A DNA stretch of 30,950 nucleotides. Origin: a virus (taxonomy: Duplodnaviria > Heunggongvirae > Uroviricota > Caudoviricetes). Both the position numbers and the translations under genes were made by a program. This document shows, one piece after another, positions 1 to 28,287 of this stretch. How positions within the stretch are numbered: position 1 is the stretch's first letter; every line of letters begins with the position of its first letter. The notes beneath the pieces were generated by a model. It worked only from the letters and a program-made list of their open reading frames with translations. It did no database searches and was not told where the DNA came from. The stretch is taken from the IMG/VR virus record IMGVR_UViG_2695420421_000007. One strand, written 5' to 3'.

Positions 1-44
1 CGGGCTAAGTTCCCTCAAAGTGATCTACTATTCCGCGCAGCTAT

Positions 45-509
45 TTAGATTCGTCTCGCCTGCCAGAAATTTTTCTGCCAATAGACATTATCAAGTGAGG
101 AACGCATCACTCCCTTGCTGGTAGAGGCGTGGATAAATTGGTTGTTGGTATCGTAAATACCTACATGCAAACCATTTTGTCCGGAACCCGTTTTGAAAAA
201 GACCAGGTCACCAGGCAGCAACTCGTCTTTATCAATTTGCGTGCCGATAGAGGCTTGTTCTTTGGTTTCTCGGGGCAGCTGCAAATCGAAACGATCGCGC
301 ATCGTTACAACCACAAATCCCGAACAGTCCACACCGCGCCGCGTCATGCCACCATAACGATACGGCGTGCCATGCCAGCTTTGTAGCTGGTCGTTCAAAC
401 CGGCAATAACGGTAATCGAATCAGAAAGTCTGGCATTTGGCGGCGGTGCTTTATGGTGGCTACACCCGGCCAGAAACAGTGCTGTGATCAAAATAAGGCA
501 GAAACGCAT
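45..509 (-). CDS. nlpC: NlpC/P60-family lipoprotein (154 aa)
   Basis: Translation has an N-terminal lipoprotein signal with LAGC lipobox and a conserved Cys in a DCSGF motif, typical of NlpC/P60 peptidases; synteny next to btuD as in E. coli. Confidence 0.88.
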   Translation of the reverse strand: MRFCLILITALFLAGCSHHKAPPPNARLSDSITVIAGLNDQLQSWHGTPYRYGGMTRRGVDCSGFVVVTMRDRFDLQLPRETKEQASIGTQIDKDELLPGDLVFFKTGSGQNGLHVGIYDTNNQFIHASTSKGVMRSSLDNVYWQKNFWQARRI

Positions 510-586
510 TCCGTACGGTTCCTCTGTTTTTTATTCTTGCATTAATTTAGCGTCGTAATTACCCGATTTTCAAGATACTAATGAAA

Positions 587-1336
587 TCAGATGGTCGAAA
601 TCAGCATTCTGTGACCTTCGATATCCAGACGGCGAAAATTCATCCCATAGGCCTGCGCCAGATTTGGCGGCGTGAGCACCTCTTCTCTGCGTCCACTGGC
701 CAGCATTTTTCCACCTTTTAGCAACCACGCCCGATGCGCATGACGCAATGTGTGGTTGAGATCGTGACTGCTCATCACAATCGCCAGTCCTTGCTGACAC
801 AGAGCGCTCAGAATTTTGTCTAACGCACTTTGTTGCGCAACATCAAGACTGTTCATCGGCTCATCAAGAAGCAGCAATTGGCCTGCGGGATTGGCTTGTG
901 GTGTGATTTGCAGCACCACCGCAGCAAGACGTACGCGTTGCCATTCACCGCCGGAAAGTTGATTGGTGCTACGTCCGAGTTTGTCATCAAGAGCCAGCGC
1001 CCCTGCGACATCATTCAGTAGTTCGGTACGCGTTTTATCGTGCTGATGCAGTGTCAGATAGTGCCAGACCGGCATTGCAAACGGCGGCGTCTGCTGTTGT
1101 GAAAGATAGGCGCGATGCAGCGCGAGTTTTGTTGCGGACCATGCTTCCAGTGGTTGCCCCGCGAACTGAATACTTCCCTTACCGCTGGTCATTCCGGCCA
1201 TTCGTGCCAGTAAGGTACTCTTACCCGCGCCATTCGGCCCCACCAGGTGCAGGATCTCCCCAGCCCGAACCTCGCCAGAAAGTGGCCCCAGGCGGGTAGA
1301 TTCCGCAACATCCTGTAACTGCATCACAATAGACAT
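587..1336 (-). CDS. btuD: Vitamin B12 ABC transporter ATP-binding protein (249 aa)
   Basis: Walker [13 protein letters not shown] signature LSGGE and Walker B LLLDEP in the translation; length and neighbours match btuD. Confidence 0.9.
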
Positions 1337-1887
1337 TATTTTGCCAACGCCAGTTTAATGCTTTCCATCACAATGGGGTCTTCCGGCGTCATATCCGGGG
1401 AAAAACGCTGGATGACCAATCCGTCCCTGCCAACTAAAAATTTCTCAAAATTCCATAAAATATCATCAGGGTACAGCGGTGCACGACCTTTGCTGACCAT
1501 ACGGGCATAGAATCCGCTCTCTTCCGGCGCGACTGCGGTCGGCGCTGCGGCAATCAATTTTTGATACAGCGGATGGCGTCCTTCGCCGTTAACTTCAATC
1601 TTACTGAACATCGGGAACGTCACCCCCCATGTGGTGGTACAGTAAGTTTTAATCTCTTCATCGCTGCCCGGTTCTTGTTCCAGAAACTGGTTGCACGGGA
1701 ATCCCAGCACCACAAAACCTCGATCGGCCCAGGCTTTCTGAATATTCTCCAACTGCTCATATTGCGGCGTTAAGCCACACTTTGAGGCGACATTGACAAT
1801 CAACAGCACATTACCGGCGTACTTCTCCAGCGTGGTCACTTCACCGTCGATATCTTTCACTACGGTCGTCAGAATGGAATCTTGCAT
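1336..1887 (-). CDS. btuE: Glutathione peroxidase-family protein (183 aa)
   Basis: Gpx-family motifs ([21 protein letters not shown]); stop overlaps btuD start; position between btuC and btuD. Confidence 0.9.
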
Positions 1888-1949
1888 CGTTTCTCCTGGG
1901 TGTGGTCAGTAAAAATCTTAGCTTTTAATCATAGACCGTCTTTTTGCGG

Positions 1950-2930
1950 CTAACGTCCTGCTTTTAACAATAACCAGATAAACACCGGCGCACCCAACGT
2001 TGCGGTGACCACGCCAATAGGCAGCTCTGCGGCAGCTAATGCCAGGCGCGCTACAATATCGGCCAGCAGCACTGCGCTCGCCCCTGCCAGCGCGCAGCCG
2101 GGAAGTAATACGCGATGATCGGTTAAACCACACAACCGAAGAATATGTGGGATCACCAGACCAATAAAGCCGATAGCACCCGCCAGCGCCACACTGACGC
2201 CAACCATCCAGCCGGTCGCTGCCACCAGCACATTGCGCCAGAACCACAGGGGTAAACCCAGTTGCCGCGCCGAGATCTCGCCAAGTGCTAACATATTCAT
2301 CGGCCTGGACTGACAACAGATCCACAACAACACGGGGATCAATGCCAGCATCAGCCAGCTTTGCCGCCAGTCTACGCCGCCAAAACCGCCCATCATCCAG
2401 TACATCAGCTGACGTAAATCAACAGAGGTGGAAAAGTAGATAGCCCACGTCATTAGTGCGCTACAGATAATCCCTAATGCAACGCCAGCCAGCAATAACC
2501 GACTGGTCGAAAGATGACGACGGGCGAAACGTAAGAGTATTAAAGTGATGATAAGCGCGCCAGCAATCGCACACAGCCCTAGCGCCCAGTTGGGGAGTTG
2601 CCCTTGCCCAAGCAATACCGCGGCGATAAGCCCCACGCCTGCGCCGTTAGAGACGCCAAGTAGTCCAGGTTCTGCCAGAGGATTTTCAAACAACGCCTGC
2701 ATTACAGCGCCGGATATAGCCAGCGCCGCACCAACCAGCAATACAGCCAGCGTACGTGGCAGGCGAATTTGCCAGACGAACAGTTCGCCACGAGGAGTAA
2801 ACCAGTCACCTGGCGAAATCCATTGTTCACCGGCGCAAAGGCTTAAGAGAAGCGCCAGCAGCATCAAAACTGACAGGCATAATAACCAGCGAATATTTTG
2901 TCGCTGTTGTTGGCGGGCAAGTGTCAGCAT
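1950..2930 (-). CDS. btuC: Vitamin B12 ABC transporter permease (326 aa)
   Basis: Highly hydrophobic multi-pass protein of FecCD/BtuC permease type; length and synteny match btuC. Confidence 0.9.
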
Positions 2931-2986
2931 GGTATCCGTTCTGCTGAAGTGTCATGGCGTTGATTTTACGGTGACTCTTCGACAGT

Positions 2987-3013
2987 GAAAAGAAAAAAGG
3001 CCGCAGAGCGGCC
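2987..3013 (-). terminator. Rho-independent terminator (minus strand) closing the leftward prophage operon before btuC
   Basis: Minus-strand reading gives hairpin GGCCGC-tct-GCGGCC (2999..3013) followed by TTTTTTCTTTTC (2987..2998), downstream of the CDS ending at 3123. Confidence 0.6.
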
Positions 3014-3122
3014 ATAAACACAAACAAAAATCAATAAGTTAGGTAATTATCAAAGACTTACAGACACACAAAAACACAGCCAACCACAACAAATAACAGA
3101 GATGTGGTCAATTTGTGGATCA

Positions 3123-3668
3123 TCAGCCAACAAATTTAGCAACAAATACAGCAACCGCCGCTGTGAAAATGGTTGTGCACACTGGCACAATAATGCCACT
3201 CCAACGCCACTTCGTATTATCATCAACCTTGTCAAACCGCCGATTCATCTCATCCATAATCTTGTCAAAGCGTTTATCCATCGCTTCGGTAAGCTCACCC
3301 TTCAGGCTGTTAATGTCTGATTTGAGCTGCTCTTTCAGGTTAGCTGTATCAGATTTAAGCTCACCTTTCAGATTCGCAATATCGCATTCAAGATCACCTT
3401 TCAGATGTGCTATGTCTGCTTTGAGTTCACCTTTCACCTCACCAACATCGGCTTTAGTTGAGAGGTTTGTAGTGCGTTCAGCAAGCGTCGCAAGGTCGTT
3501 TCTTGTTAGCGATAAATCACCTTCGAGCCGCTCAATTCGCCTTTCAAGTTTATCTGACATTCCGCCTCCACTACTGCCGCCATCGCCACCATGATAAAGC
3601 ACATCACGCTCAGAATGCGACACACTACCTGCTGAATTACCGAAAAGATTTCTTGCTACATTACCCAT
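3123..3668 (-). CDS. Hendecad-repeat coiled-coil protein with C-terminal transmembrane anchor (about 181 aa); function unknown
   Basis: ORF track 3123..3677; preferred start is the ATG at 3668 (AGGA Shine-Dalgarno upstream), overlapping the stop of the upstream gene. Translation has five 11-residue LKGELKxDIxx-type repeats and a hydrophobic C-terminus GIIVPVCTTIFTAAVAVFVAKFV. AT-rich codons. Confidence 0.6.
   Translation of the reverse strand: MGNVARNLFGNSAGSVSHSERDVLYHGGDGGSSGGGMSDKLERRIERLEGDLSLTRNDLATLAERTTNLSTKADVGEVKGELKADIAHLKGDLECDIANLKGELKSDTANLKEQLKSDINSLKGELTEAMDKRFDKIMDEMNRRFDKVDDNTKWRWSGIIVPVCTTIFTAAVAVFVAKFVG
3291..3455. repeat. Five tandem 33-bp units inside the coiled-coil CDS
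   Basis: Units at 3291-3323, 3324-3356, 3357-3389, 3390-3422 and 3423-3455 share the core (a/g)AG(c/a/t)TCACC(c/t)TTCA on the plus strand; they encode the 11-aa repeats. Confidence 0.65.
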
Positions 3669-4161
3669 TATCACCATCCTGCGCTTTGTCTTTCTCCAAC
3701 CACTTCAGCACCGCAGACGTACGATAAAGGCTCAGGTAACCACAATTCAGGCAATGCAGCGTGTAATAAGTTTTGCGCATATCAGGTATGCTCTTAACAT
3801 CACCCAAAAAAGCATAAGATACATAATGCTTTATGTTCTCTTTAATTAACTCACTCTGTTCCTCCAGGGGTAGATTGTTAAAATTTTCTGGTTTCTTATT
3901 TTTATCCCAGCAAAGATCCATACTTTCTGGAACAGATAATCGCGACGATCCACATGAAGGGCAGACACTGGAGACCCCCTTCTCAGACAAGAAACGGAAG
4001 AAGATTTCTGGCGTAATCTCCATCAGCCGCTCTTTATGTTTTTTGACACGACTCATCGACTTCTTATTGATTTCATCAGCTTCTTCTTTGCATTTATCTT
4101 CTATATATTTCGATAGTAAATAGTCATATAACTCTTTTTTTGTAGGTTTTTTTATTTCCAT
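3661..4161 (-). CDS. Cys-cluster (putative zinc-ribbon) protein, 166 aa; function unknown
   Basis: Translation contains CPSCGS and CLNCG cysteine pairs, Lys/Glu-rich and AT-rich. ATG lies 2 nt after the int stop with a GGAGGA Shine-Dalgarno inside the int 3' end. Confidence 0.6.
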   Translation of the reverse strand: MEIKKPTKKELYDYLLSKYIEDKCKEEADEINKKSMSRVKKHKERLMEITPEIFFRFLSEKGVSSVCPSCGSSRLSVPESMDLCWDKNKKPENFNNLPLEEQSELIKENIKHYVSYAFLGDVKSIPDMRKTYYTLHCLNCGYLSLYRTSAVLKWLEKDKAQDGDNG

Positions 4162-4163
4162 AG

Positions 4164-5141
4164 TTACATTCCTCCCAAGGGATTAAACCTCACCGCATCC
4201 TGCAAGTAATCCGGCGCAAGATGGGCATAAATCATCGTTGTCTGAATCTTTGCGTGCCCCAGAATTTTCTGGAGCGTCAGAATATTGCCGCCGTTCATCA
4301 TGAAATGACTGGCGAAGGTGTGGCGCAGCGCATGAACAGCCTGGCCGTCAGGAACATCAGGTGCGACCGTTTTGATGACATCGCGAACCAATGAATAATC
4401 CAGCGTCGGAAACACCAGTTTCCCGCCCCGTTTTTTGATCTTTTCAAACAGGCTTTCAGAAATAGGAACGGTACGGTTTTTGCTGTTCTTCGTTTTTGAA
4501 AAAGTGATTCGACAATGAAGAACACGGCGCTGCTCCAGTGCCGCTACCTCGCCCCATCGCGCCCCGGTCGACAGAAGGATTTCGACGGCCAGCCGTTCAT
4601 CGGGATTTTCAGCCAGTGCATCCAGCAACTGAACACATTCAGACTTACTCAGATATCCCATTTCACGCTCGTTAACCTTCATTCCTTTAAGGCCTTGAAC
4701 GGGGTTATCGTTAAGAAAATGGCCGGATGAGATGAGTGCGGTAAACATCGCGCTTAACGCCCCAATCTCTCGATTTATGGTGCTGGGCTGTATCCCCTGC
4801 TCTATCCTGGACACACGTAGCTCGGTGAGCATCGTTGTATTAAGTTTATGCACGCACGGGTCATCCATTGCCTCACTCAAGCGCAGCAATTTAAGGCGCG
4901 TGTTATGCCCTGACTTCATTAGCTGGCCGTGGTATTTCCACCACAAGTCAATAAGCACTGACAGCGGACGGCGATCAATGGAGTTTCCTTTCCACTCATT
5001 GTTATGCTGTTGCGCCAGCACCCACCGCTCATATAAAACTGCATCCGATTTCGTTTTAAATTTTTTGCGAATGCGTTTGCCTTTACGCCCCTCAGGACGC
5101 ATGTCAAGAAGATACCCTCCCGGAATTGATTTTATGCTCAT
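4164..5141 (-). CDS. int: Tyrosine recombinase / phage integrase (P2 Int-like)
   Basis: C-terminal catalytic region HALRHTFASH ... LGHAKIQTTMIYAHL is the tyrosine recombinase R-H-R-Y signature. ORF extends to 5291, but the Met at 5141 (MSIKSIPGGY) gives a P2 Int-like length of 326 aa. Confidence 0.88.
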   Translation of the reverse strand: MSIKSIPGGYLLDMRPEGRKGKRIRKKFKTKSDAVLYERWVLAQQHNNEWKGNSIDRRPLSVLIDLWWKYHGQLMKSGHNTRLKLLRLSEAMDDPCVHKLNTTMLTELRVSRIEQGIQPSTINREIGALSAMFTALISSGHFLNDNPVQGLKGMKVNEREMGYLSKSECVQLLDALAENPDERLAVEILLSTGARWGEVAALEQRRVLHCRITFSKTKNSKNRTVPISESLFEKIKKRGGKLVFPTLDYSLVRDVIKTVAPDVPDGQAVHALRHTFASHFMMNGGNILTLQKILGHAKIQTTMIYAHLAPDYLQDAVRFNPLGGM

Positions 5142-5190
5142 TCGTGAAGCCCCAGCGTTACAAGACCACCATGCCCCCAGCGTTCCATGA

Positions 5191-5502
5191 TTAGCCGGGC
5201 TGTGTGCCAGTCTTGCGGGATTTTTGAGAAGACGATGTGTTTTCTGGCCCATCAGGGGAGAGAGAAGGACTGATCTGCCCAGCAGCCTCATTTGTTTCGT
5301 TACTCATCAACCACGTAGTGTATTTTTTAAATTCCGGGTGCATTGTGATTTTCAGTAAAACCTCCGTTCCCACACCTCGAATACCAGTCTCGTATTGCTT
5401 AACCGTACCAACCGCAATACCTATTGAATCCGCGAACTTTGCCTGACTAAGCCCCTCAGATTCTCGAATTGCTTTTAGCTTCTTTGATATCTCTATTGAC
5501 AT
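5191..5502 (-). CDS. C: P2 C-type immunity repressor (about 104 aa)
   Basis: From the internal Met (MSIEISKKLKAIRESEGLSQAKFADSIGIAVGTVKQYETG...TTWLMSNE...AGQISP) the translation parallels the P2 C repressor as recalled from memory (HTH, then a FTKYTLWFM-like block). Divergent from the early operon, upstream of int. Confidence 0.78.
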   Translation of the reverse strand: MSIEISKKLKAIRESEGLSQAKFADSIGIAVGTVKQYETGIRGVGTEVLLKITMHPEFKKYTTWLMSNETNEAAGQISPSLSPDGPENTSSSQKSRKTGTQPG

Positions 5503-5597
5503 GGTGTGCACCTGAATACTATATTGGTTATCAGTTGAGTACCACTTGACGCTACAAAGAGCCACAAATAGCACCAGATTGAATAGGTTATCACACC
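5503..5597. promoter_or_regulatory. Immunity switch region: divergent repressor and early promoters with candidate operators
   Basis: 95-bp gap between divergent C and the first early gene. Direct repeats AT(T/A)GGTTATCA at about 5520-5530 and 5580-5590 flank a TTGACG -35-like hexamer (about 5546). Confidence 0.45.
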
Positions 5598-5876
5598 ATG
5601 GCAAAAGTCCTTAACACATACGAACAAGCGGATTTTGAGCGTTTGGCGGCGTTCTACCCATACCGTAATGAACATGGGCTACCGGTACTTGAAGAAAGCC
5701 TAGAGGATTATGCGAAACGCACAAATCAAAGCATTCTCGCTGTAAGAAGGCAGGCTGATAGATCGGTAATTCCCGTTACTCAAGAAGGAAGAAACACAAA
5801 ACGCAAAGTAAATCTCTTCGCAATTTTCCTGAAAACCATCAGAAACGCAGAGAAATACGTGCAGATGACAAAATAA
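5598..5876 (+). CDS. First early-operon gene, positional equivalent of Cox/Apl (92 aa); function inferred from position only
   Basis: Divergent from C immediately across the operator region. Sequence does not obviously match P2 Cox. Confidence 0.5.
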   Translation: MAKVLNTYEQADFERLAAFYPYRNEHGLPVLEESLEDYAKRTNQSILAVRRQADRSVIPVTQEGRNTKRKVNLFAIFLKTIRNAEKYVQMTK

Positions 5877-5890
5877 CGAGGTGTCATTTT

Positions 5891-6229
5891 ATGCTGAAGC
5901 AACGCCGTAATTTTTGTACCGGAACAGAACGCCACGCTAACCGTTTCACTACCAGTGCATCACGCAGCAACATCCGCTACAGCCTGAGTGATACACACGC
6001 AACGCCGGATGGCTACCCAGTAAAACAAATCGGCGAGCACGCCTGGCTGATTGAGAAAGCTGGAATCGTGATCCACAAATGCCCACGCAATCCGTTTACC
6101 GGAAACCGCATTTTTGCACTGAGCTGTGGCGACAATCAGTTCGGGCAGGATTTCACATTATACGAAGCACTTCGCACGGTTGATCGTCTGCTTCGCGGGC
6201 AAAGTTTTATTAAACAGGCTGATTTATAA
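5891..6229 (+). CDS. Hypothetical early phage protein (112 aa)
   Basis: ORF in the early operon with ATG start and GAGG upstream; no recognisable motif. Confidence 0.55.
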   Translation: MLKQRRNFCTGTERHANRFTTSASRSNIRYSLSDTHATPDGYPVKQIGEHAWLIEKAGIVIHKCPRNPFTGNRIFALSCGDNQFGQDFTLYEALRTVDRLLRGQSFIKQADL

Positions 6230-6239
6230 CAGGTGCTTT

Positions 6240-6527
6240 ATGACCAAAGACAATGCACAAGGTGTATTTATCCGTTTTATTGATTTTCGCGGTGAACTGT
6301 TATTACGTGCATCCGCTATTGACGGAGTGACTCCGGCGGGTAAAAACGGAGCCGACGAAGCCACTTACGTTTATCTGAACGGCACGCGACTGCTTGTGGA
6401 ACTTCCGTACCAGACCGTACGAGAAATCATCAGCGAAGATGAAAAGGCACGCCAGGTTAATGGCGATGAACCCTATATCGAAATTATTTGTATGGATTCA
6501 GAAGCTGAAATACAGAAAGCAGATTAA
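6240..6527 (+). CDS. Hypothetical early phage protein (95 aa)
   Basis: In-frame ATG at 6240 within ORF 6126..6527, preceded by AACAGG; upstream part of the ORF overlaps the previous gene so the internal start is preferred. Confidence 0.55.
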   Translation: MTKDNAQGVFIRFIDFRGELLLRASAIDGVTPAGKNGADEATYVYLNGTRLLVELPYQTVREIISEDEKARQVNGDEPYIEIICMDSEAEIQKAD

Positions 6528-6538
6528 AGGGCGTTGTG

Positions 6539-6781
6539 ATGGGCAAAGAATATAAAACTCTCATTAACAAAGCACTTGAGCGTTTTTATTTTCGCTTAAG
6601 TGCATCAGGCGCTCATGCTGAACGTGCGGCCCGTGACTCATTGACCAGAGCAATCCGAAGTCTGTATGACGTGGCTTTTTACGCTGATGATCTGGATGCA
6701 CTTAACGAACTTTCCGAGCTGATCTGTGCCGCAGAATGCGGGGAACATATTGAACCGTATAAGCTGGGAAATATCGCATGA
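6539..6781 (+). CDS. Hypothetical early phage protein (about 80 aa)
   Basis: ORF 6536..6781; ATG at 6539 preceded by AAAGGG. Confidence 0.5.
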   Translation: MGKEYKTLINKALERFYFRLSASGAHAERAARDSLTRAIRSLYDVAFYADDLDALNELSELICAAECGEHIEPYKLGNIA

Positions 6782-6891
6782 GTATATTTATTTCATGGCT
6801 TGTTCTGATTATTTCGGTGGTCTGCGCCATTGGGATTATGCGAATTATTAATTCAGTAAAAAAGATTGAACGCTTTTTCACTGAAGAATAA
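6778..6891 (+). CDS. Small hydrophobic peptide (37 aa), predicted single-pass membrane protein
   Basis: Not in the ORF track (too short). ATG at 6778 overlaps the stop of the upstream gene (ATGA). Translation MSIFISWLVLIISVVCAIGIMRIINSVKKIERFFTEE is hydrophobic then basic. Confidence 0.4.
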   Translation: MSIFISWLVLIISVVCAIGIMRIINSVKKIERFFTEE

Positions 6892-6977
6892 CCGCGCAAA
6901 TAAGACCCTAGGTTAAATAAGAAAATGTGAAAACAATCCGCATTCGCGGAGGTATTCGCACACGCCAAGGAGGCGTA

Positions 6978-7181
6978 ATGGCAATTAAGCATTTTCCTGT
7001 CGTTCGTTTCACCTCCAGAGGACGTGAATACGAAGTTGACGAACGCCTGATTACCACAATCGACAAACACCGTTCAGAAAAGGATGCACATCATATCTAT
7101 CTCACTGACGGCACTTACTTCTGCGCCACCAACGTGGTGCAGGTGAATCTTATCAGACAGGTACAGGAGTCACGCAGATGA
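6978..7181 (+). CDS. Hypothetical early phage protein (67 aa)
   Basis: Internal ATG at 6978 directly preceded by AAGGAGG Shine-Dalgarno; ORF track gives 6927..7181. Confidence 0.5.
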   Translation: MAIKHFPVVRFTSRGREYEVDERLITTIDKHRSEKDAHHIYLTDGTYFCATNVVQVNLIRQVQESRR

Positions 7182-7423
7182 CCATTCTGGACTACATCGC
7201 TGCCAATCCGGGTTGTAGCAGTGGAGAAATCGCCGCAGCACTGAATACACCAACCACAACCATTAATGCGGAGCTACGCCGTCTCTGGCGCAGCGGTTTA
7301 GTCACAAGAAAAGAGCGCAAAACAGGCGGTCGCTTTTCTTATCAGGTAAACCTGATGCCGTTTGGGTGTAGCAACCCACTAACCCAGATGTTCAACCAGC
7401 TACTGAGGGAAATCAGAGCATGA
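7178..7423 (+). CDS. Small putative winged-helix DNA-binding protein (81 aa)
   Basis: Start overlaps the preceding stop (ATGA). Translation pattern SSGEIAAALNTPTTTINAELRRLWRSGLV resembles a wHTH fold (inference from sequence pattern only). Confidence 0.5.
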   Translation: MTILDYIAANPGCSSGEIAAALNTPTTTINAELRRLWRSGLVTRKERKTGGRFSYQVNLMPFGCSNPLTQMFNQLLREIRA

Positions 7424-7564
7424 GCACCTCCAACTGCCGGAAACCACGTCGGGCTTCAGCAGCTCATCCGGCAGCAAAACAAACTCCATTAATTCCTGTT
7501 CCGGGCCTTTCCTGCACCTTGCGGCGGGAGGCCTTCGCACATCTGTAACAAGAGGATTGCCGCA

Positions 7565-7930
7565 ATGATTCTCGCCAACGACTTTCTTGAATACCTGCTC
7601 AACACAGAGCGTGATCTTGCCGCTCGCGTGCGTGATCGTTATGACATGTACCTGAAATCCCTGCCTGTACCGCAGCTCGCTGACGGAAAGATTGTTATTG
7701 ATGGTCGCTACATGATTGACAGCCACGAGGGAAATTACAGGCTTTACCGCATTGAAGGTGGCACCCCGTCCGTTATTGGCATTTACCAGCGCCCATCCTC
7801 TGCAATCGTCGATGTGATTGCCGACAGCATCCGCATCACACATCGCCATGCCGACACAGAAGACACCGTGCTGGAAATTCAGCGGCTGGCTACAGTCTGC
7901 CGCGACACCCTGAATGGCATGACGAAGTAA
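7565..7930 (+). CDS. Hypothetical early phage protein (121 aa)
   Basis: ORF immediately upstream of the replication gene; no recognisable motif. Confidence 0.5.
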   Translation: MILANDFLEYLLNTERDLAARVRDRYDMYLKSLPVPQLADGKIVIDGRYMIDSHEGNYRLYRIEGGTPSVIGIYQRPSSAIVDVIADSIRITHRHADTEDTVLEIQRLATVCRDTLNGMTK

Positions 7931-7936
7931 ATCACT

Positions 7937-10759
7937 ATGACGGCAGAGTACATCAGGGACTGGCAACAACCGCGCCACGCAGTGGGGCGTGAAGGAACGG
8001 GGATCCCCGCTCCTGAATCCGCGCTTTCCTCCTGGCTGGATGCCCACCGGGCAGAGAACGAGCGCCGCCAGGAAATGGCTGATGCGGCGTTCTCCGCCAC
8101 GCCACTGGGCAACCTGATTAATAAAAGCCTGGACGCACAGGAAAAACAGGACAAAACCATCACACTGGCAGGAGACGCCAGAAAACAGGCACGCGGCGCG
8201 GTGGATGAAGCCATGGCCTCGCTGCGCCTGCTGCCGTCCTATCTGCGCGATCCGCTTATTCGCCACCTCTCCTTCCTGCGCAAAAAACAGGAAGCCGATC
8301 GCCGGAAAGGCAAAAAGAGCTGGCAGGCGGAACGCTATGCACGCGGAACCCTGCGCAAAATATTCGAACGTCTGGATCGCACTGACGGACACTGGCTGAC
8401 ACCGGGTTATCGCTCCCTTGCCGGACGTGAACGCCTGGACGATTTGCTTTACCTGCCGCAACTCAACAAACACCAGATACAGACGCTGGCCACCATGACG
8501 GCGGCGATGTTCAGCAGCACCTTCGAAAAACTCTGCGATGGTTTTGGCGCGACTGATGGCGAGCTGACCATGGATGTAACGCTGAAGGCGTATCAGATGC
8601 TGGCCCGCATGGCGTTACACTTACACGCCATGCCTCCGCATTATGACGCACTGACAACAGACAAAGACCGGAGGCACGAACCGGACACAGAACTGCTGCC
8701 GGGCGCAATCCTTCGCCTGACCTGTGCGGAATGGTGGAAACGCAAACTGTGGCTGTTACGTTGCGAGTGGAGAGAAGAACAACTTCGCGCCGCCTGTCTG
8801 GTTTCCAGAAAAACATCGCCCTATCTGAGCCAGGACGCGTTAAGCGAGTTTCGCGCACAGCGCGAGAAAACACGCGATTTCCTGAAAAGTTTCATGCTGG
8901 AAAATGAAGACGGGTTCACGATTGATCTCGAGACGGTGTATTACGCGGGAGTAAGTAACCCGGTTCACCGTAAGGCAGAAATGATGGCCACCATGAAGGG
9001 GCTGGAACTTCTGGCCGAAGCCCGTGGCGACAAAGCGGTGTTTCTGACTGTCACCTGCCCGTCAAAATACCACGCCACAACGGAGAACGGTCATCCGAAT
9101 CCCAAATGGAACGGGGCCACAATGCGCGACTCCAGCGATTACCTGGTTAACACGTTTTTTGCGACGGTCCGCAAAAAACTGAACCGCGACGGCCTGCGCT
9201 GGTATGGCATCCGCACGGCGGAGCCTCACCATGACGGCACCGTGCACTGGCATATGATGGTCTTTGCTCATCCGGAAGAAATCGACACCATTGTGTCCCA
9301 CACCCGCGATATTGCCATTCAGGAAGATCGTCACGAGCTGGGCGATGACATAACTCCGCGCTTTAAGGCGGAGTATGTAGACGGCTCAAAAGGCACGCCA
9401 ACCAGCTACATCGCCACCTACATCGGGAAAAACCTGGACAGCCGCGCCGTGGATGGCATCGACCCGAAAACGGGCAAGCCACGCGTTGACCACGAAACCG
9501 GAAAATCAATGGCCGAGAGCGTGGAACGCGCCATCGGCTGGGCGCGCCTTCACCGGGTCCGCCAGTTCCAGTTCTTTGGCATCCCCTCCCGCCAGGTATG
9601 GCGTGAACTGCGCCGCCTTGCCAGCCAGATGGCACGCAACCCGGAAGGCCCGCAACGGCTGAAGGATGACGCAATGGATGCGGTTCTTGCCGCCGCTGAT
9701 GCCGGATGTTTTGCCACCTACATAGAGAAACAGGGCGGCGTACTTGTTCCACGCAAAGACTACCTGATTCGCACCGCCTACGACCTCGCCGATGAGCTGA
9801 ACGATTACGGCGAACAGAGCGTACAGATTTACGGGATCTGGTCACCACTCATCGGGGAATCCTCCCGTGTGTGCACGCATCCGGATAACTGGAAGCTGGT
9901 AAGACGCAAACCGGAAGCGGAAGACAGCGCCCGCGAAAATGGTTTTGACCTTCAGGGCGGCCCTGCCGCCCCTTGGACTCGTGGCAATAACTGTCCCCGT
10001 GTACAGGAAACGGACAACAACGGGACAGAACAGCCGGAAGAACGGCCAGCACCGTGGCCGCAGCTCCCTGACGGCGTTGATGTGGATGAATGGATGCGCT
10101 CACTGAAACGGCACGAACGCCGGGCGCTGATGCGTTCGCTTCGTGACAAACAGGCAAAAAACAGCAGTGATGAAATGCAGAGCTGGACACAGAGCCGCAA
10201 ACAGCAGCGGCCTTTGCCTGATAACCACGAATTACTCGCTAAAGAATGGCGGGAGTCTGCTGAATCTCTCGGCCTGCATATCGGTGAACAACAGATGCAG
10301 CACCTGTTACGGGGCGGCAGTCTGTACGTTGACGGCAGCATCATTGCACCGCAGGGATTTGAAATTGTACGCAAACCGGATACCCGCCCGGACAGCCGAA
10401 TCACGCAGCTCTGGCAGCGCCTGAGCCGTAATCATGGCGTAAGCAGCACGGAGATCCGCCATAACCCGGTCGCCAGCTATCTGACACAGCTGGGGGCATC
10501 AGACCCTGAAGCCGCCGCACGCCTGGCATCCACACTTCAGCAGGACCAGAACACCATGAAAACACCCGTTACCGTGCTTTCTGACATGCTGCGCGCCATC
10601 CGCGACGCAGAGCACGCACAGAGAATCAGTGAAACCACTGAACGCGCCCGCCGCAAAGCAGACCTGCTGCGGGGTGGCCTGACCAGTGGAAACAAAAAAC
10701 AGACAGAAACGGGACTCACGAATCCCGTAAATGAGCAAAAAACGCGCAGCGATATATGA
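7937..10759 (+). CDS. A: Replication initiation endonuclease, P2 gpA family (940 aa)
   Basis: Large last gene of the early operon; contains an HxH block (HWHMMVF) and a downstream Tyr cluster (YIATYIGKN), read as the metal-binding and catalytic-tyrosine motifs of rolling-circle initiators of P2 A type. The C-terminal roughly 180 aa look like an acidic/basic low-complexity extension. Confidence 0.8.
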   Translation: MTAEYIRDWQQPRHAVGREGTGIPAPESALSSWLDAHRAENERRQEMADAAFSATPLGNLINKSLDAQEKQDKTITLAGDARKQARGAVDEAMASLRLLPSYLRDPLIRHLSFLRKKQEADRRKGKKSWQAERYARGTLRKIFERLDRTDGHWLTPGYRSLAGRERLDDLLYLPQLNKHQIQTLATMTAAMFSSTFEKLCDGFGATDGELTMDVTLKAYQMLARMALHLHAMPPHYDALTTDKDRRHEPDTELLPGAILRLTCAEWWKRKLWLLRCEWREEQLRAACLVSRKTSPYLSQDALSEFRAQREKTRDFLKSFMLENEDGFTIDLETVYYAGVSNPVHRKAEMMATMKGLELLAEARGDKAVFLTVTCPSKYHATTENGHPNPKWNGATMRDSSDYLVNTFFATVRKKLNRDGLRWYGIRTAEPHHDGTVHWHMMVFAHPEEIDTIVSHTRDIAIQEDRHELGDDITPRFKAEYVDGSKGTPTSYIATYIGKNLDSRAVDGIDPKTGKPRVDHETGKSMAESVERAIGWARLHRVRQFQFFGIPSRQVWRELRRLASQMARNPEGPQRLKDDAMDAVLAAADAGCFATYIEKQGGVLVPRKDYLIRTAYDLADELNDYGEQSVQIYGIWSPLIGESSRVCTHPDNWKLVRRKPEAEDSARENGFDLQGGPAAPWTRGNNCPRVQETDNNGTEQPEERPAPWPQLPDGVDVDEWMRSLKRHERRALMRSLRDKQAKNSSDEMQSWTQSRKQQRPLPDNHELLAKEWRESAESLGLHIGEQQMQHLLRGGSLYVDGSIIAPQGFEIVRKPDTRPDSRITQLWQRLSRNHGVSSTEIRHNPVASYLTQLGASDPEAAARLASTLQQDQNTMKTPVTVLSDMLRAIRDAEHAQRISETTERARRKADLLRGGLTSGNKKQTETGLTNPVNEQKTRSDI

Positions 10760-10801
10760 AGCGCGCACAAAACAGGCAAAAACGGGATTTCAGAATCCCG
10801 T
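10709..10801. promoter_or_regulatory. Pair of near-identical 20-bp palindromes (ACGGGAyT-N4-AATCCCGT) about 73 bp apart, spanning the A stop and the parM-like upstream region
   Basis: 10709-10728 ACGGGACTcacgAATCCCGT and 10782-10801 ACGGGATTtcagAATCCCGT, each within the same AAAAACGGGA...GAATCCCGTAAA context. Confidence 0.35.
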
Positions 10802-10835
10802 AAACGATTAATTAATCAACATAAGGAAAAGCGAC

Positions 10836-11795
10836 ATGAAAATTTGTATCGACGACGGCTCCACCAACATCAAGCTGGCATGGACTGAGAACGGCGAACG
10901 CCGCAACGCCATCAGCCCGAACAGCTTCAAGTCGGAATGGTCTGCGCCGTTCGGTGGCATGCAGCCCGCGAACTACATGCTTGATGGCGTGCGCTATGGT
11001 TTTGATCCGGTCAGCGATCGCTTTGTCCAGACAACCGACACGCAATACCAGTACAGCGATGTAAATGTCATTGCCATTCATCACGCGCTGGTCAAATCAG
11101 GCATCACGCCACAGGAGGTGGATGTGGTTGTCACCCTGCCACTGAGCGAGTATTTCGACACAAACGCACAGCCGGACATGGCCAACATCAACCGCAAAAA
11201 AGCGAACGTTATGCGCCCGGTGGAGTACCAGAACGGCGAAGCATTCACTATCCGTAACGTGCGGGTTATGCCTGAATCCATTCCGGCTGGCTTTAAGGCA
11301 CTGGCTGACATGAGTCCGTTTGAATCCCTGCTGATTGTGGATTTGGGCGGAACCACGCTGGATGTGGCAAAGGTTCAGGGGCAACTGGCAGGTATCAGCC
11401 AGGTGTTTTGCGATCCACACGTAGGCGTTTCTCTGATGGCCGATGCCGTACTGTCGGTGATGGCCACTAACGGTATGCGCACCAGTCACCACATCGCCAA
11501 TACCATTATCGAACATCGCCATGATGAAGCCTGGCTGCGCCAGCACATCCACAATGACGCGCATTACGCCAGCCTGATGGCGGTTATTCGTGAAAAGGAA
11601 GAAACACTGAAACAACGCGTGATCCGCGCGCTGGCGGGTTTTTCGGGTTACGGGCGGGTGATGGTTGTCGGTGGAGGGGCGGAGATTGTGGCACCCGCTA
11701 TCCGCGAAGCCTGCGGAGTTAATGCGACTTTCATCGCGGACGGGGTGCCACAGTTTGCTCTGGTTAATGGGCTGTACGCAATGGACAAGGAGTAA
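10836..11795 (+). CDS. ParM/StbA-like actin-family ATPase (319 aa)
   Basis: N-terminus MKICIDDGSTNIKLAW and internal blocks (YQYSDVNVIAIHHAL, VDLGGTTLDVAKV, VPAGFKA) parallel plasmid R1 ParM as recalled from memory; strong Shine-Dalgarno AAGGAAAA upstream. Confidence 0.8.
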   Translation: MKICIDDGSTNIKLAWTENGERRNAISPNSFKSEWSAPFGGMQPANYMLDGVRYGFDPVSDRFVQTTDTQYQYSDVNVIAIHHALVKSGITPQEVDVVVTLPLSEYFDTNAQPDMANINRKKANVMRPVEYQNGEAFTIRNVRVMPESIPAGFKALADMSPFESLLIVDLGGTTLDVAKVQGQLAGISQVFCDPHVGVSLMADAVLSVMATNGMRTSHHIANTIIEHRHDEAWLRQHIHNDAHYASLMAVIREKEETLKQRVIRALAGFSGYGRVMVVGGGAEIVAPAIREACGVNATFIADGVPQFALVNGLYAMDKE

Positions 11796-11799
11796 ACCA

Positions 11800-12111
11800 A
11801 TGACGACACCAACCAGACGGATAAGTTTCTATCTGAAGCCTGCGGCCGTCAAGAACGAAAGCGAAGCATGCGCCTGGCTGGGCAGCCTTACACCAGAAGC
11901 CCGCAAAAGCGGCCAACGCGTGGCTTTTCTGGCCGGGCTGGCACTTCTGAAAATGAATCCAGCAGAGGCTTACCGACTGGCTGCATGGGCTGACGATGAG
12001 GCGTTATCGGTGACACAAACCAGGACAGAACGCCCCGTGCCACAGCCAGTACCAACCGCACAGATAACCAGTCAGATAGCAGGGAATATCCGGGCATTAT
12101 TTCCTGAATGA
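11800..12111 (+). CDS. Hypothetical protein (103 aa) in the ParR-equivalent position
   Basis: ATG at 11800 preceded by AAGGAG that overlaps the parM-like stop. No recognisable motif; assignment is by position only. Confidence 0.5.
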   Translation: MTTPTRRISFYLKPAAVKNESEACAWLGSLTPEARKSGQRVAFLAGLALLKMNPAEAYRLAAWADDEALSVTQTRTERPVPQPVPTAQITSQIAGNIRALFPE

Positions 12112-12171
12112 CGAATTTGACGGCTTTTAATTTTATCGGGGTGCACTGTCGCCCCGCACGAGGAAAACACG

Positions 12172-12696
12172 ATGAAAAAATACGAATACATGCTAATGAA
12201 AGAAGCACTGCGGGCTGGTCTGGCTCCCTGTCCTGTATCCGTAGAAGCTGTTGTTGGGAACACGATTTTCCGAACGCTGCGAAATCGCGTATCCGTGAAG
12301 ATGGTTCACCAACCACCCAAATCTACCAGCATGATCTATCTGCCGCTGCCCGAGGCTATCAAACTTATGCGTTCGCTGAAATTTGCGATTTGGATGCAGA
12401 CACAAATCAACAAAGCGGTGCAAAACACCTTCGTTAAGAGACTAATACCGGAGCTTGCTGCCAGATGTGCAAAATGTACCAGACCCGCACTTCAATTTGA
12501 TCTGTCATTGATTCAACAAGCTACGGAGGCAGAACTGTACCGCCTGTCACCTATCCGTGATGCTCACACGGAAGCATCAGAAATGTTCCGGCTCATGTTT
12601 CAATTTAATTTTGCCGTTCGACGCACACGCGTTCAGGTCAATCGCATGATGCAGGAGCAGGAAGAGTTAACACAGTACAAAGGGGGCAGCCAGTGA
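12172..12696 (+). CDS. Hypothetical protein (174 aa), cos-proximal cargo
   Basis: ATG with GAGGAAAA Shine-Dalgarno; preceded by a small GC hairpin (about 12134-12152). No recognisable domain. Confidence 0.55.
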   Translation: MKKYEYMLMKEALRAGLAPCPVSVEAVVGNTIFRTLRNRVSVKMVHQPPKSTSMIYLPLPEAIKLMRSLKFAIWMQTQINKAVQNTFVKRLIPELAARCAKCTRPALQFDLSLIQQATEAELYRLSPIRDAHTEASEMFRLMFQFNFAVRRTRVQVNRMMQEQEELTQYKGGSQ

Positions 12697-12932
12697 GTAA
12701 TTCAGCACGACTACAGCTTGGTTTTTCACCGCTATCAAAAACCATCGTATTGGCAAAAATGCGTGACTTAGGAGACGGAACAAAACGCCGCGTAGGAAAT
12801 GATCGCGGTCGCGATGTAACCAACGAGGCCGCTCAACTCGTTTGGCATCTAGTCATGGCAGAAGGCGGTGAAATTAATTGGGAGCTGGATGATGGTTCTC
12901 GTATGATTTTGAGGGCCGAGAAGAGTAAATAG
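12693..12932 (+). CDS. Hypothetical protein (79 aa), translationally coupled to the upstream gene
   Basis: GTG start overlapping the upstream TGA (GTGA). Confidence 0.45.
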   Translation: MSNSARLQLGFSPLSKTIVLAKMRDLGDGTKRRVGNDRGRDVTNEAAQLVWHLVMAEGGEINWELDDGSRMILRAEKSK

Positions 12933-12946
12933 CTCAAGGGGGATTA

Positions 12947-13132
12947 ATGCTAAATGATGATGAAGAAGAGCTGCTTATGCAGGAATGGTCGCTCGGTGAT
13001 TATGATAATGGTGAAAATGGGTGCCCGCATTGTGGCCGTTATCGTTTATGTATCTGCCAGAATGGAAAACACAGATGTGAAAAGTGCAATTGGTCTCCGG
13101 AACTTAATGACTACGTGCCGATCGAGTGGTAG
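12947..13132 (+). CDS. Small Cys-rich (putative zinc-ribbon) protein (61 aa)
   Basis: AAGGGGG Shine-Dalgarno then ATG; translation contains CPHCG...CIC...CEKC. The overlapping ORF 12954..13148 is rejected in its favour. Confidence 0.5.
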   Translation: MLNDDEEELLMQEWSLGDYDNGENGCPHCGRYRLCICQNGKHRCEKCNWSPELNDYVPIEW

Positions 13133-13139
13133 AGGTAAG

Positions 13140-13620
13140 TCACACTAGGTGTTTTTTAGTTGATTTTATAAATGCACAATAGTGCACAAATTTGCACAAT
13201 TTTTTTGAACGACTTTTTGCCCTTCCGGCCCGCGTGGCGGCTGGATCCGTCAAGGATCCGTGCATGCACAAAAAAACGCGTTTTTTCTGCGCGCAGGTGA
13301 CGGGGGAACAGCCCGCGTTTCAGGGGGTAAATAGCATTCCCTGAACGATGTCGCAGAGATACAACAGAATGGCTGTATTTCTCACGCTGAGCGTGAAAAA
13401 GACGTGAGGGCTTTTGATTTGATGGGGTGAAAGGTAAGGCCGTCAAAATCGCACTGAGACGGCGAGAATATGCAGTCAACGAGGTGGGATTGCGTAAGAG
13501 TCTGACTGTCGATGATGGCAATCAGCAGGAAAGCGTCGTGAAATTATCTGACTGATACAGGAGCTGGAGAGTCGGGGCATAAATTTTTTATGCCCCGGCG
13601 AAGCAGCAGACAAGCGAAGC
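13140..13620. other. Non-coding cos-proximal region (candidate cos / packaging site) between cargo genes and portal gene
   Basis: About 480 bp without credible ORFs in the position P2 cos occupies next to Q. Contains a triple direct repeat TGCACAA (13172-13200), a tandem GGATCCGT repeat (13242-13260) and the perfect palindrome AAAAAACGCGTTTTTT (13271-13286). Confidence 0.4.
13574..13596 (-). terminator. Perfect hairpin downstream of the portal gene (possible terminator of the leftward P-Q operon)
   Basis: GGGGCATAAA-tttt-TTATGCCCC inverted repeat 28 bp past the Q stop; no clean T-run, so terminator function is uncertain. Confidence 0.35.
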
Positions 13621-24939: not shown

Positions 24940-26976
24940 ATGAGTACCACAACACGAAAATTTAAAACCATTATCACCGATACGGGTGCAAAAAAATTAG
25001 CGCAGGCAACCGCGCCAGATGGGAAACCTGTCCGCCTGACACATATGGCCGTGGGTGACGGCGGCGGTACTTTACCCACGCCAGACAGTAAGCAGACCCG
25101 TCTTGTGCATGAGGTGTGGCGACATACCGTTAATCGCGTCACCCTGGACGCAACACATCAGAACCACATTATTGCGGAGCTGGTTATTCCTCCTGAAACG
25201 GGCGGATTCTGGATCCGGGAAATTGGTGTGTTTGATGAGCACGGCGATTTGATCGCGGTAGGCAATACTGCCGAAAGTTACAAGCCAACCGTTGCCGAAG
25301 GATCCGGACGTGCACAAACATTTCGCACCATTCTGACCGTATCCAGCACTGCCACTGTGGCGCTTACCGTGGATAACACCATGGTGATGGCCACAGTGAA
25401 TTACGTGGATGACAAACTGAAAGAGCATGAACAGTCACGACGTCACCCGGACGCCTCGCTGACCGCAAAAGGCCTTGTCCAGCTCAGCAACGCCACCAAC
25501 AGCACGTCTGAAACGCTGGCAGCGACACCAAAAGCCGTTAAGGCAGTAATGGATGAAACGAACAAGAAAGCCCCATTAAACAGCCCGGCACTGACCGGAA
25601 CGCCAACAACACCAACTGCGCGACAGGGAACGAATAATACCCAAATCGCAAGCACGGCTTTCGTTATGGCTGCGATTGCCGCACTTGTAGACTCTTCGCC
25701 TGATGCACTGAACACACTGAACGAGCTGGCGGCGGCGCTGGGCAACGACCCGAATTTTGCGACCACCATGACTAACGCGCTTGCGGGTAAGCAACCGAAA
25801 GATGCCACTCTGACGGCGCTGGCGGGGCTTGCTACTGCGGCAGACAGGTTTCCGTATTTTACGGGGAATGATGTCGCCAGCCTGGCAACCCTGACAAAAG
25901 TCGGGCGGGATATTCTTGCGAAATCGACCGTTGCCGCCGTTATCGAATACCTCGGTTTACAGGAAACGGTAAACAAGGCTGGTAACGCCGTGCAAAAAAA
26001 TGGCGATACGTTGTCCGGTGGACTTACTTTTGAAAACGACTCAATCCTTGCCTGGATTCGAAATACTGACTGGGCAAAGATTGGGTTTAAAAATAATTCG
26101 GATGCAGACACCGATTCCTACATGTGGTTTGAAACAGGCAACAACGGCAATGAATATTTCAAATGGAGACACCGCATCATTGGCACCCGGCCTAAAGACC
26201 TGATGAATCTTAAATGGAATGCTTTGTCTGTTCTTGTTGAAGCCCTTTTCAGCAGTGAAGTGAAAATATCGACAGTCAATGCACTGAGGATATTTAATTC
26301 ATCTTTTGGTGCCATTTTTCGTCGTTCTGAAGAATGCCTGCATATCATCCCTACACGAGAGAATGAAGGGGAAAATGGTAATATAGGGCCACTACGCCCC
26401 TTTACGCTTAATCTCAGAACTGGCCGGATAAGCATGGGGCATGGTCTTGATGTTACAGGGGATATATTTGCAAACCGTTTTGCAATTAACAGTAGTACCG
26501 GCATGTGGATTCATATGCGTGACCAGAATGTTATTTTGGGACGTAATGCGGTATCCACTGATGGTGCTCAGGCTTTGCTCCGTCAGGACCATGCCGACCG
26601 CAAATTTATGATTGGCGGTCTGGGAAATAAGCAATTTGGCATCTACATGATTAATAACTCAAGGACAGCCAATGGCACCGATGGTCAGGCGTACATGGAT
26701 AATAACGGGAACTGGCTTTGCGGCTCGCAAGTTATTCCCGGCAACTATGGCAATTTTGATTCCAGATATGTGAAAGATGTTCGACTTGGTTCACAGCAAT
26801 ATTATGGAGTGAACAACTGGCAAACATGGAATTTTCAGTGCCCGTCAGGCTATGTACTGACGGGGATTAACGTACAGGATACCGGAAAAAACTCTGCCGA
26901 TAATATTGCAGGCGTTCATTACAGGCCAGTGCAAAAGTATATAAATGGCACTTGGTATAATGTGGCGAGTATTTAA
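24940..26976 (+). CDS. H: Tail fibre protein H (678 aa)
   Basis: N-terminal and central portions of P2 H type; the central block ([23 protein letters not shown]...) is shared with lambda-type Stf; divergent C-terminal receptor-binding region. Confidence 0.88.
25470..25960. repeat. Direct repeat copy 1 (inside H) of a roughly 490-bp tail-fibre segment
   Basis: Matches 30460..30950 at a constant offset of 4990 bp; about 95 percent identical by eye over the last 380 bp. Confidence 0.8.
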
Positions 26977-26977
26977 T

Positions 26978-27217
26978 ATGATGCACTTAAAGAACATAAA
27001 AGCAGGTAATGCTAAAACAGTGGAGCAGTATGAGTTAACAAAGAAGCACGGAGTCATCTGGCTTTACTCTGAGGACGGAAAAAACTGGTATGAGGAAGTG
27101 AAGAACTTTCAGCCAGACACAATAAAGATTGTTTACGATGCAAATAATATTATTACGCAGTGTGAACACCGTTGGCAAATCGGCATTCGTGGAGGCTGTC
27201 GGTCGGGCGAGCGATGA
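26978..27217 (+). pseudogene. tfa: Tail fibre assembly gene, N-terminal fragment only (truncated tfa)
   Basis: [11 protein letters not shown]...[24 protein letters not shown] matches the N-terminus of E. coli Tfa proteins as recalled; reading frame runs into the J-like fragment and ends without the Tfa C-terminal half. Confidence 0.6.
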
Positions 27218-28268
27218 TGCGGAAGGTTACCTGGATTTTTTCAAAGGAGAGATAGGGAAAACACATCTGGCTCAGGAGCTGTGGACGCAGATTGATAACG
27301 GTCAGCTTGCGCCTGACCTGGCTGAAATCAGGACGTCCATTACGGATGTCAGCAATGAAATCACGCAGACTGTCAATAAGAAACTGAAAGACCAGAGTGC
27401 GGCAATCCAGCAGATACAGAAGGTTCAGGTTGATACAAATAATAATCTGAACAGCATGTGGGCTGTGAAGCTGCAACAGATGAAGGACGGACGCCTTTAT
27501 ATTGCGGGTATCGGTGCCGGTATTGAGAATACGCCAGCAGGAATGCAGAGTCAGGTGCTGCTGGCGGCAGACAGGATTGCGATGATTAATCCTGCGAATG
27601 GCAACACAAAGCCGATGTTTGTTGGTCAGGGCGATCAGATATTCATGAACGACGTGTTCCTGAAACGCCTGACGGCTCCCACCATTACCAGCGGCGGTAA
27701 TCCTCCGGCATTTTCCCTGACACCGGACGGAAAACTGACCGCTAAAAATGCAGATATCAGTGGCAGTGTGAATGCGAACGCCGGGACGCTCAACAATGTC
27801 ACAATTAATGAGAACTGTCAGATTAAGGGGAAACTGTCAGCCAACCAGATTGAAGGCGATATAGTCAAAACAGTGGGTAAGGCTTTTCCGCGGGACTCCC
27901 GGGCACCGGAGCGGTGGCCATCAGGGACCATTACCGTCAGGATTTATGACGATCAGCCTTTTGACAGGCAAATTGTTATTCCGGCGGTGGCATTCAGCGG
28001 CGCTAAACATGAGCGGGAGAATAACGATATTTATTCGTCATGCCGCCTGATAGTACGGAAAAACGGTGCTGAAATTTATAACCGTACCGCGCTGGATAAT
28101 ACGCTGATTTACAGTGGTGTTATTGATATGCCAGCTGGTCGCGGCCACATGACGCTGGAGTTTTCGGTGTCAGCATGGCTGGTGAATAACTGGTATCCCA
28201 CAGCAAGTATCAGCGATTTGCTGGTTGTGGTGATGAAGAAAGCCACCGCAGGCATCAGTATCAGCTGA
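27129..28268 (+). pseudogene. J: C-terminal fragment of a lambda J-like tail tip/host-specificity gene
   Basis: From about 27171 the translation parallels the lambda J C-terminus as recalled ([78 protein letters not shown]); the N-terminal bulk of J (about 1100 aa in lambda) is absent. Confidence 0.75.
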
Positions 28269-28287
28269 ATTTTATAACCCATATACG

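Follow-up and report, generated by a model that had tools for sequence, protein, structure and literature searches.

A P2-family prophage next to btuC with the ihfA terminator as its predicted attachment core

Results

Host and phage genes on either side of the junction

We analyzed a stretch of 30,950 nucleotides from IMG/VR record IMGVR_UViG_2695420421_000007, hereafter called the window. It opens with the host genes nlpC-btuD-btuE-btuC on the minus strand, and the ATG of btuC lies at position 2930. The btuC gene (1950-2930, minus strand), which encodes a vitamin B12 ABC transporter permease, is a 326-aa host open reading frame (ORF); it is collinear with K-12 btuC upon alignment and is annotated as btuC in both K-12 and the E. 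coli O26 strain RM8426. A gap at 2931-3122 separates btuC from the first phage ORF. This ORF, cargo gene 1 (3123-3677, minus strand; stop codon at 3123-3125), specifies a coiled-coil protein with a hydrophobic C-terminus, annotated as DUF1640 and 145 aa long from its RefSeq start. Cargo gene 2 (3661-4161, minus strand) encodes a 166-aa protein that has CxxC zinc-ribbon-like motifs and belongs to phrog_4293. These two genes occupy a slot between int and the P'-arm sites described below (3123-4161), the content of which varies between strains: a single 131-aa hypothetical protein is found there in E2348/69 and O104:H4, and two other hypothetical proteins in M10 and SE11. We did not assign the cargo genes to a defense system: PADLOC returned only weak coiled-coil-type matches, Pfam hits were below the cut-offs, and PHROGs lists them as "unknown function".

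Next to the cargo lies a gene for a P2-family tyrosine integrase (4164-5141, minus strand; 325 aa from MSIKS). Its product contains an arm-binding domain (Pfam Int_N, E = 2e-28) and a catalytic domain (Phage_integrase, E = 6e-20), and is 46% identical to P2 Int over its full length of 325 aa (E = 2e-110). It is followed by a gene for a helix-turn-helix immunity repressor (5191-5502, minus strand) in a P2 C-like position, and, on the plus strand, by a 92-aa ORF (5598-5876) that matches P2 cox in position and size and is a candidate excisionase or switch protein. The similarity of this ORF to P2 Cox is weak (25% identity over 53 aa, pairwise E = 2e-5), and it has no Pfam hit. A strong promoter-like site (5496-5525, 11/12) lies upstream of the cox-position gene. 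The order of int, repressor, divergent promoter-like site, and cox-position gene is that of P2, and the replication module comes next.

Host identity extends into the gap and stops at position 3013

A first-pass annotation, made from the letters of the window alone, had described a btuC block up to 2930, phage ORFs from 3123, and a minus-strand terminator between the two, and our ORF map and terminator scan bear this description out. It had also proposed an alignment with a prophage-free ihfA-btuC region. Alignment with prophage-free K-12 MG1655 gives identity from btuC up to and including 3013 and unrelated sequence starting with 3014, which refines both boundaries. The start of btuC at 2930 stands, but conserved host DNA does not end there, as 100% identity to K-12 runs unbroken to 3013. 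Likewise, 3123 is the end of the first phage ORF, but phage DNA itself begins at 3014. The host side was matched by all 5426 complete E. coli genomes searched, and in the empty-site genomes that we sampled across the ranking of these 5426, homology stopped at query position 83, i.e., window position 3013.

The gap hence has three parts. Positions 2931-2988 (minus strand) are the native upstream region of btuC, 100% identical to K-12, and make up the host B arm of attL. Positions 2989-3013 are the 25-bp att core, AAAGAAAAAAGGCCGCAGAGCGGCC, delimited by the end of K-12 identity and by its repeat at the right prophage end in related lysogens (see below). Positions 3014-3122, absent from K-12, are the phage P' arm of attL. 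The first-pass annotation had placed attL somewhere within this gap, and the core at 2989-3013 gives it an exact position. It had also named ihfA as the K-12 gene directly upstream of btuC, and the K-12 sequence agrees.

The core is duplicated next to ihfA in related lysogens

RM8426 carries a near-identical prophage, with 99.4% identity over window positions 46-12109, and ihfA-pheT-pheS follow the far end of that same prophage. The proposal that the phage inserted between ihfA and btuC is therefore supported by this lysogen. The right junction of RM8426 reads ...TTATTG-AAAGAAAAAAGGCCGCAGAGCGGCC-TTTTTAGTTAGATCAGATTA, the last element containing the ihfA stop codon. What its left and right junctions have in common is exactly 25 bp, with zero additional identity on either side. 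The same 25 bp, again with zero extra identity beyond the edges, is present at the ihfA-side prophage end in SE11. The prophage of RM8426 has a core-to-core length of 35.1 kb, and in both strains the second core copy comes after ogr, at the far end of a P2-like genome of 35-36 kb. Just inside attR, the right end of the RM8426 prophage (positions 10822-13159 of the extracted locus, L003) encodes a PIN-domain protein, Ogr, and a Hok/Gef toxin; ogr and hok are found just inside attR in SE11 as well.

The duplication was seen in RM8426 and SE11; the attR of the source genome lies outside the window, the right end of which falls inside a tail-fiber-type gene. Accordingly, the matching attR that the first-pass annotation had suggested looking for was found near ihfA in these two lysogens but not within the window, where the core at 2989-3013 is single even when up to 3 mismatches are allowed.

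The core has the form of the ihfA terminator

A scan of the gap found one canonical minus-strand intrinsic terminator. Its stem, GGCCGC/GCGGCC (3013-2999), has 6 G-C pairs and a 3-nt loop, and is directly followed on the minus strand by the T-tract TTTTTTCTTT (2998-2989), which includes a run of six T's. The hairpin is present in both the minimum-free-energy and the centroid folds, with a centroid hairpin energy of -11.6 kcal/mol, and its 56-nt context folds with z = -2.8 relative to shuffles. With a G+C-rich hairpin and then a T-tract, 2989-3013 qualifies by sequence and fold as an intrinsic terminator. The stop codon of ihfA in K-12 is located 18 nt past the hairpin, which makes the hairpin the terminator of ihfA. 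Because the core consists of the hairpin and T-tract that are repeated beside ihfA, and because K-12 identity stops at 3013, we conclude that the att core is the ihfA terminator. The terminator noticed by the first-pass annotation is thus real, but rather than being a separate phage feature beside attL, it is at once the att core and the native terminator of ihfA.

The attB site reads AAAAAGGCC-GCAGAGC-GGCCTTTTT, i.e., two 9-bp sequences in perfect inverted repeat with a 7-bp spacer (3003-3009) between them. An inverted repeat around 7 bp is the usual core geometry of tyrosine recombinases, and strand exchange would take place within the hairpin/loop region of attB. As a candidate promoter of btuC, we found a weak sigma-70-like match (2991->2963, 9/12), which does not rise above shuffle expectation.

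What does the terminator mean for btuC? The tight gene spacing suggests that the repressor, int, and cargo genes are co-transcribed, and the repressor gene (5191-5502) is likely the first gene of a leftward operon that ends at the attL terminator. The first-pass annotation had warned that leftward prophage transcription, if not fully terminated, would read into btuC. Read-through of this kind might alter btuCED expression in lysogens. The gene layout is compatible with such read-through: all four of these ORFs are on the minus strand, closely packed, and facing btuC, and our scan found no other strong minus-strand terminator from 5500 to 3013, where the weak hits in total are not above shuffle expectation. 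However, the hairpin with its 6 G-C pairs and six-T run is intact at attL, the same element shields btuC from the pheST-ihfA operon in non-lysogens, and all DNA between the T-tract and the btuC ATG is as in K-12. Since both the terminator and the btuC leader are the same, any leak would replace an existing one and would not create a new connection. We therefore regard altered btuCED expression through read-through as unlikely.

Predicted IHF and integrase sites in the phage arms

The IHF consensus WATCAANNNNTTR has two matches in the entire 30,950-bp window, and both are in the P' arm: AATCAATAAGTTA at 3029-3041 and TATCAAAGACTTA at 3048-3060, each on the plus strand. To judge how well these sites are kept, we compared six aligned attL sequences from different hosts. 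The site at 3029-3041 retains the consensus in five of the six, the exception being strain M10, in which one breaking substitution gives AATCAACAAGTTA. The site at 3048-3060 is retained in all six; it reads TATCAAGAAGTTA in the locus L008 (see below), which still fits the consensus. Further from the core is a pair of P2-type Int arm-binding repeats (3103-3121, plus strand), TGTGGTCA (3103-3110) and TGTGGATC (3114-3121), arranged as TGTGGTCA-N3-TGTGGATC so that they lie 11 bp apart from start to start. The pattern TGTGG-N6-TGTGGA occurs once in the window, at 3103-3119, vs. 0.02 occurrences expected by chance, and the arm sequence GATGTGGTCAATTTGTGGATCA aligns with the Int arm sites annotated in P2, ATGTGGTCAATGTGTGGACG in the P arm and CTGTGGACACTGTGTGGACA in the P' arm. 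In each of the two repeats, the TGTGG core is invariant across 6/6 attL sequences, and all six keep the att core. Immediately after the arm sites, at 3123/3124, all six sequences diverge, and it is here that homology between prophages with different cargo breaks; in two non-E. coli hosts, divergence also occurs immediately to the left of the core. A search of the P' arm (3014-3122) for Cox-box-like repeats gave only trivial 8-nt matches.

To view the phage site as a whole, we reconstructed attP by joining the attR arm of RM8426 to the attL arm of the window. The reconstructed site has a mirror-image P arm, with ATGTGGACACACAGTGGAAC and then AATCAATCAGTTA, the latter ending 3 bp before the core. 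In RM8426 and SE11 alike, the P arm contains ATGTGGACAC(A/T)(C/T)AGTGGAAC together with AATCAATC(A/G)GTTA, which ends 3 bp before the core, and these motifs are kept in SE11 even though the sequence between them has diverged. The locus therefore has the paired direct-repeat arm sites, and the IHF consensus between core and arm sites, by which a P2-type attachment site is recognized at the sequence level. IHF and Int would be expected to bind at these P'-arm sites.

We also considered whether the int-cargo block, from 3014 to ~5500, could be a small element of its own, integrative or satellite, that sits in tandem with a P2-like prophage, in which case the true prophage end would lie further to the right. 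Two non-P2 genes between att and int are unusual for P2 itself, and this slot differs between strains, as such an element might predict. But the window has a single copy of the core, the arm sites are of the P2 type, and int runs directly into a P2-style repressor gene, divergent promoter, cox-position gene, and replication module. In RM8426 and SE11, moreover, the second core sits beyond ogr, at the other end of the full-length P2-like genome, and the int-att slot has been described as a minor cargo hotspot in P2-like phages (bioRxiv 10.64898/2026.02.27.708500). A satellite accordingly has very little chance of being the right explanation. The reading that we prefer, with a probability of about 0.92, is that 2931-3122 is the attL (B-O-P') of a P2-family prophage, the Int of which recombines attP with the ihfA terminator.

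Other joints in the window and the state of this prophage copy

Further to the right, there is an abrupt joint at ~27150-27156, where the 5' part of a P2-like tail-fiber assembly gene (starting at 26979) gives way to a lambdoid J gene, of which the C-terminal ~380 codons are present (27129-28268). The two sides share a microhomology of a few bases at the joint, and a lom gene (28336-28935) and a side-tail-fiber-like gene follow (context 24940-30950). This tfa/J joint was found in 0/5426 complete E. coli genomes. In this assembly, the sheath, tube, tape-measure, D, and ogr genes and attR are not contiguous with attL. If the tfa/J joint does not stem from misassembly, this prophage copy is probably rearranged or defective, and, given the interruption at ~27150, the attR of the source genome may be missing or displaced.

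The first 45 bases of the window (1-47) are not the native sequence downstream of nlpC, where K-12 and RM8426 have the nlpC terminator. They are 90-95% identical to a multicopy chromosomal and plasmid sequence in 1381 E. coli genomes, and in strain 2013C-4830, that sequence is located upstream of a transposase pseudogene of the IS630 family, at a distance of ~60 bp. From the TAG of a CTAG onward, the window is again homologous to the native sequence, CTAG being the target typical of IS630. The window start looks like the end of an insertion sequence that inserted right after the nlpC stop codon.

Another region of note is the accessory segment between the replication genes and the portal gene (10836-13521), which contains ParM-like and Plasmid_stab_B-like partition genes (10836-12111). 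Next come several ORFs, at 12108-12696 (plus strand) and 13156-13521 (minus strand), that had no family match. They differ from RM8426 at 12110-13170.

Distribution of the attachment site

The P' arm was found in 296 of the 5426 complete E. coli genomes (5.5%), once in each, on the chromosome, and at 90-100% identity. Carriers include O26, O103, O111, and O145 strains, some O157:H7 strains, O104:H4, and E2348/69, and in 5/5 genomes that we spot-checked, the P' arm adjoined btuC. Two genomes labeled as other than E. coli, with btuC genes ~78-79% identical to that of E. coli, encode integrases that are 98-99% identical to the one in the window and are again located beside btuC. Outside E. coli, the Int family drops straight from these two genomes at 98-99% to 51% identity or less, with no graded series in between. 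One of the two, L008, which is labeled Salmonella enterica (btuC ~79%), has, beside btuC, an Int 99% identical to that of the window together with the same cargo. Its core (~6160-6190, minus strand of the locus) has TAA in place of AGA in the hairpin loop (GGCCGCTAAGCGGCC). The P' arm of L008 is also substituted at several positions, with the IHF-like and arm sites spared. The loop variant suggests that attP cores track the terminator variants of their hosts.

We then turned to deposited phages and metagenomes. A megablast search with the module at 3014-5700 returned, among deposited phages, just an 81% fragment in one Klebsiella record, and the reconstructed attP had no match in 50,697 phage records, even in distant mode. 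By tblastn, the best Int match among deposited phages was 56%, and none exceeded 57% identity. The core and P' arm together were matched 44 times, in 29 IMG/VR and 15 metagenome contigs, all of them attL with the btuC side upstream; the free attP form, searched for in IMG/VR as the exact P-arm/core/P'-arm pattern, had 0 matches.

These counts bear on whether the junction might be an illegitimate insertion or an assembly artifact. That the window has two other odd joints, the IS-like end at 1-45 and the P2-tfa/lambda-J joint at ~27150, would speak for such an origin. Yet the exact junction of btuC, core, and P' arm is shared by 296 complete genomes and 44 independent viral or metagenomic contigs, and a precise 25-bp duplication flanks the prophage in complete genomes. 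We give an artifactual junction next to no chance, and take the joint at 3013/3014 to be that of a P2-type attL.

Discussion

A host terminator that would be kept on both sides of the prophage

In the mechanism that we propose, a heterobivalent Int of the P2 type, together with IHF, would recombine attP with the ihfA terminator as attB. As the phage brings its own copy of the hairpin and T-tract, both products of recombination would have a minus-strand terminator. The copy at attR would continue to terminate ihfA and the sRNA derived from its 3' UTR (STnc540 in Salmonella), and the copy at attL would end the leftward repressor-int-cargo genes that point at btuC. For btuC nothing changes in this respect: the terminator between it and ihfA in non-lysogens still stands in front of it. 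Integration would thus be conservative because the phage core holds the entire hairpin and T-tract. Terminator efficiency at attL and attR is predicted here from hairpin and T-tract alike. On the plus strand of attR, the hairpin gains a host-derived TTTTT (RM8426 right junction), which could also halt rightward transcription of ogr/hok short of ihfA, where it would be antisense.

The core carried by the phage duplicates exactly the ihfA/STnc540 terminator, the 3' element at which ProQ binds the Salmonella sRNA (PMC6315103). The repressor-int-cargo mRNA would therefore end in the same ProQ-recognized hairpin, and an IHF-dependent phage might in this way have its lysogeny and integration transcript, or the output of the adjacent ihfA/STnc540, coupled to ProQ and IHF physiology. 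If this were true, the choice of target would be functional rather than incidental. We consider such coupling a long shot.

In practice, the prophage boundary is now set to the base, with the core at 2989-3013, and both btuC and its leader belong to the host and not to the phage cargo. "BtuC permease" appears among the phage auxiliary metabolic genes in a 2026 survey of P2-like viruses (PMC13100340). As a common P2-like prophage abuts btuC, this entry may be an artifact of a prophage boundary that was over-extended at the btuC att site. With the att site occupied in ~5.5% of complete E. coli genomes, its position bears on automated prophage surveys in general. That attP holds a copy of a host terminator illustrates conservative integration neatly, but is not new biology.

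Comparison with known systems

The closest known case is PP_SE11-4, a P2-like prophage of SE11 for which the site "between btuC and ihfA" and a 25-nt duplication were reported (Oshima et al. 2008, DNA Res 15:375; PMC2608844, Table 2). Integration between btuC and ihfA in E. coli has hence been in print since 2008, and the gap on the btuC side is an ordinary P2-type attachment site at this already known locus. In SE11, the core starts at 1,928,706, which is the published prophage start, and its second copy comes right after the published end at 1,964,507 (PMC2608844). PP_SE11-4 and the prophage in the window share the site, the P2-like type, the 25-nt duplication, the Int family, and the P' arm. 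They differ in the cargo between the P' arm and int, and PP_SE11-4 is complete at 35.8 kb, whereas the copy in the window is interrupted at ~27150.

Phage P2 itself (AF063097) has the same order of elements: ogr, P-arm Int sites, IHF site, core, P'-arm Int sites, int, repressor gene, and a divergent gene at the cox position. Its arm sites are also nearly the same in sequence, being pairs of TGTGGnCA 11 bp apart. However, the core of P2, AAAAAATAAGCCCGTGTAAGGGAGATT, and its host target are different from those of the window, and the P' arm of P2 overlaps the 3' end of int, where the window has two cargo genes in between. Unlike P2, the btuC-site phage has IHF consensus sites on both sides of the core, and Cox-box repeats were not recognized in its P' arm.

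The host side of the site has a counterpart in STnc540, a ProQ-dependent sRNA of Salmonella that comes from the ihfA 3' UTR, shares the ihfA terminator, and is bound by ProQ in its 3' region (Westermann et al. 2019, PMC6315103). The att core corresponds to the terminator hairpin of the STnc540 locus (Rfam RF02082). Against this model, the empty site of K-12 (positions 6154-6312 of the extracted locus, L002) scores 67.4 bits, with a gathering score of 38, in a match that runs from the 3' end of ihfA through the hairpin to the btuC leader; relative to the Salmonella model, ~44 nt are missing from the E. coli locus. In RM8426, the attR side (L003, 13368-13524) scores 43 bits, above the gathering score, and attL in the window (2931-3054, minus strand), where only the hairpin and the downstream btuC leader are present, scores 22.1 bits, below the threshold. 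No Rfam family reached its gathering score anywhere in the window. Because the gap holds only the terminator and the part downstream of it, we did not file it as an STnc540 gene. As the RF02082 model includes ~60 nt of btuC leader beyond the terminator, the attL-side score falls below the threshold when a prophage occupies this position. Judged by these sequence matches, with 43 bits at attR and 22.1 bits for hairpin plus downstream part at attL, the predicted target of the phage is the ihfA/STnc540 terminator, and the part that makes up the RNA proper is left intact.

Some integrases insert their phage at the 3' end of a gene for a tRNA, tmRNA, or sRNA, which is then restored from a phage-borne copy. 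The btuC-site phage resembles these in that the core duplicates a host 3'-terminal structure and the host gene is left intact. It is unlike those that target the body of a tRNA or tmRNA gene in that the structure used here is the terminator of a protein-coding gene and of a 3'-UTR sRNA.
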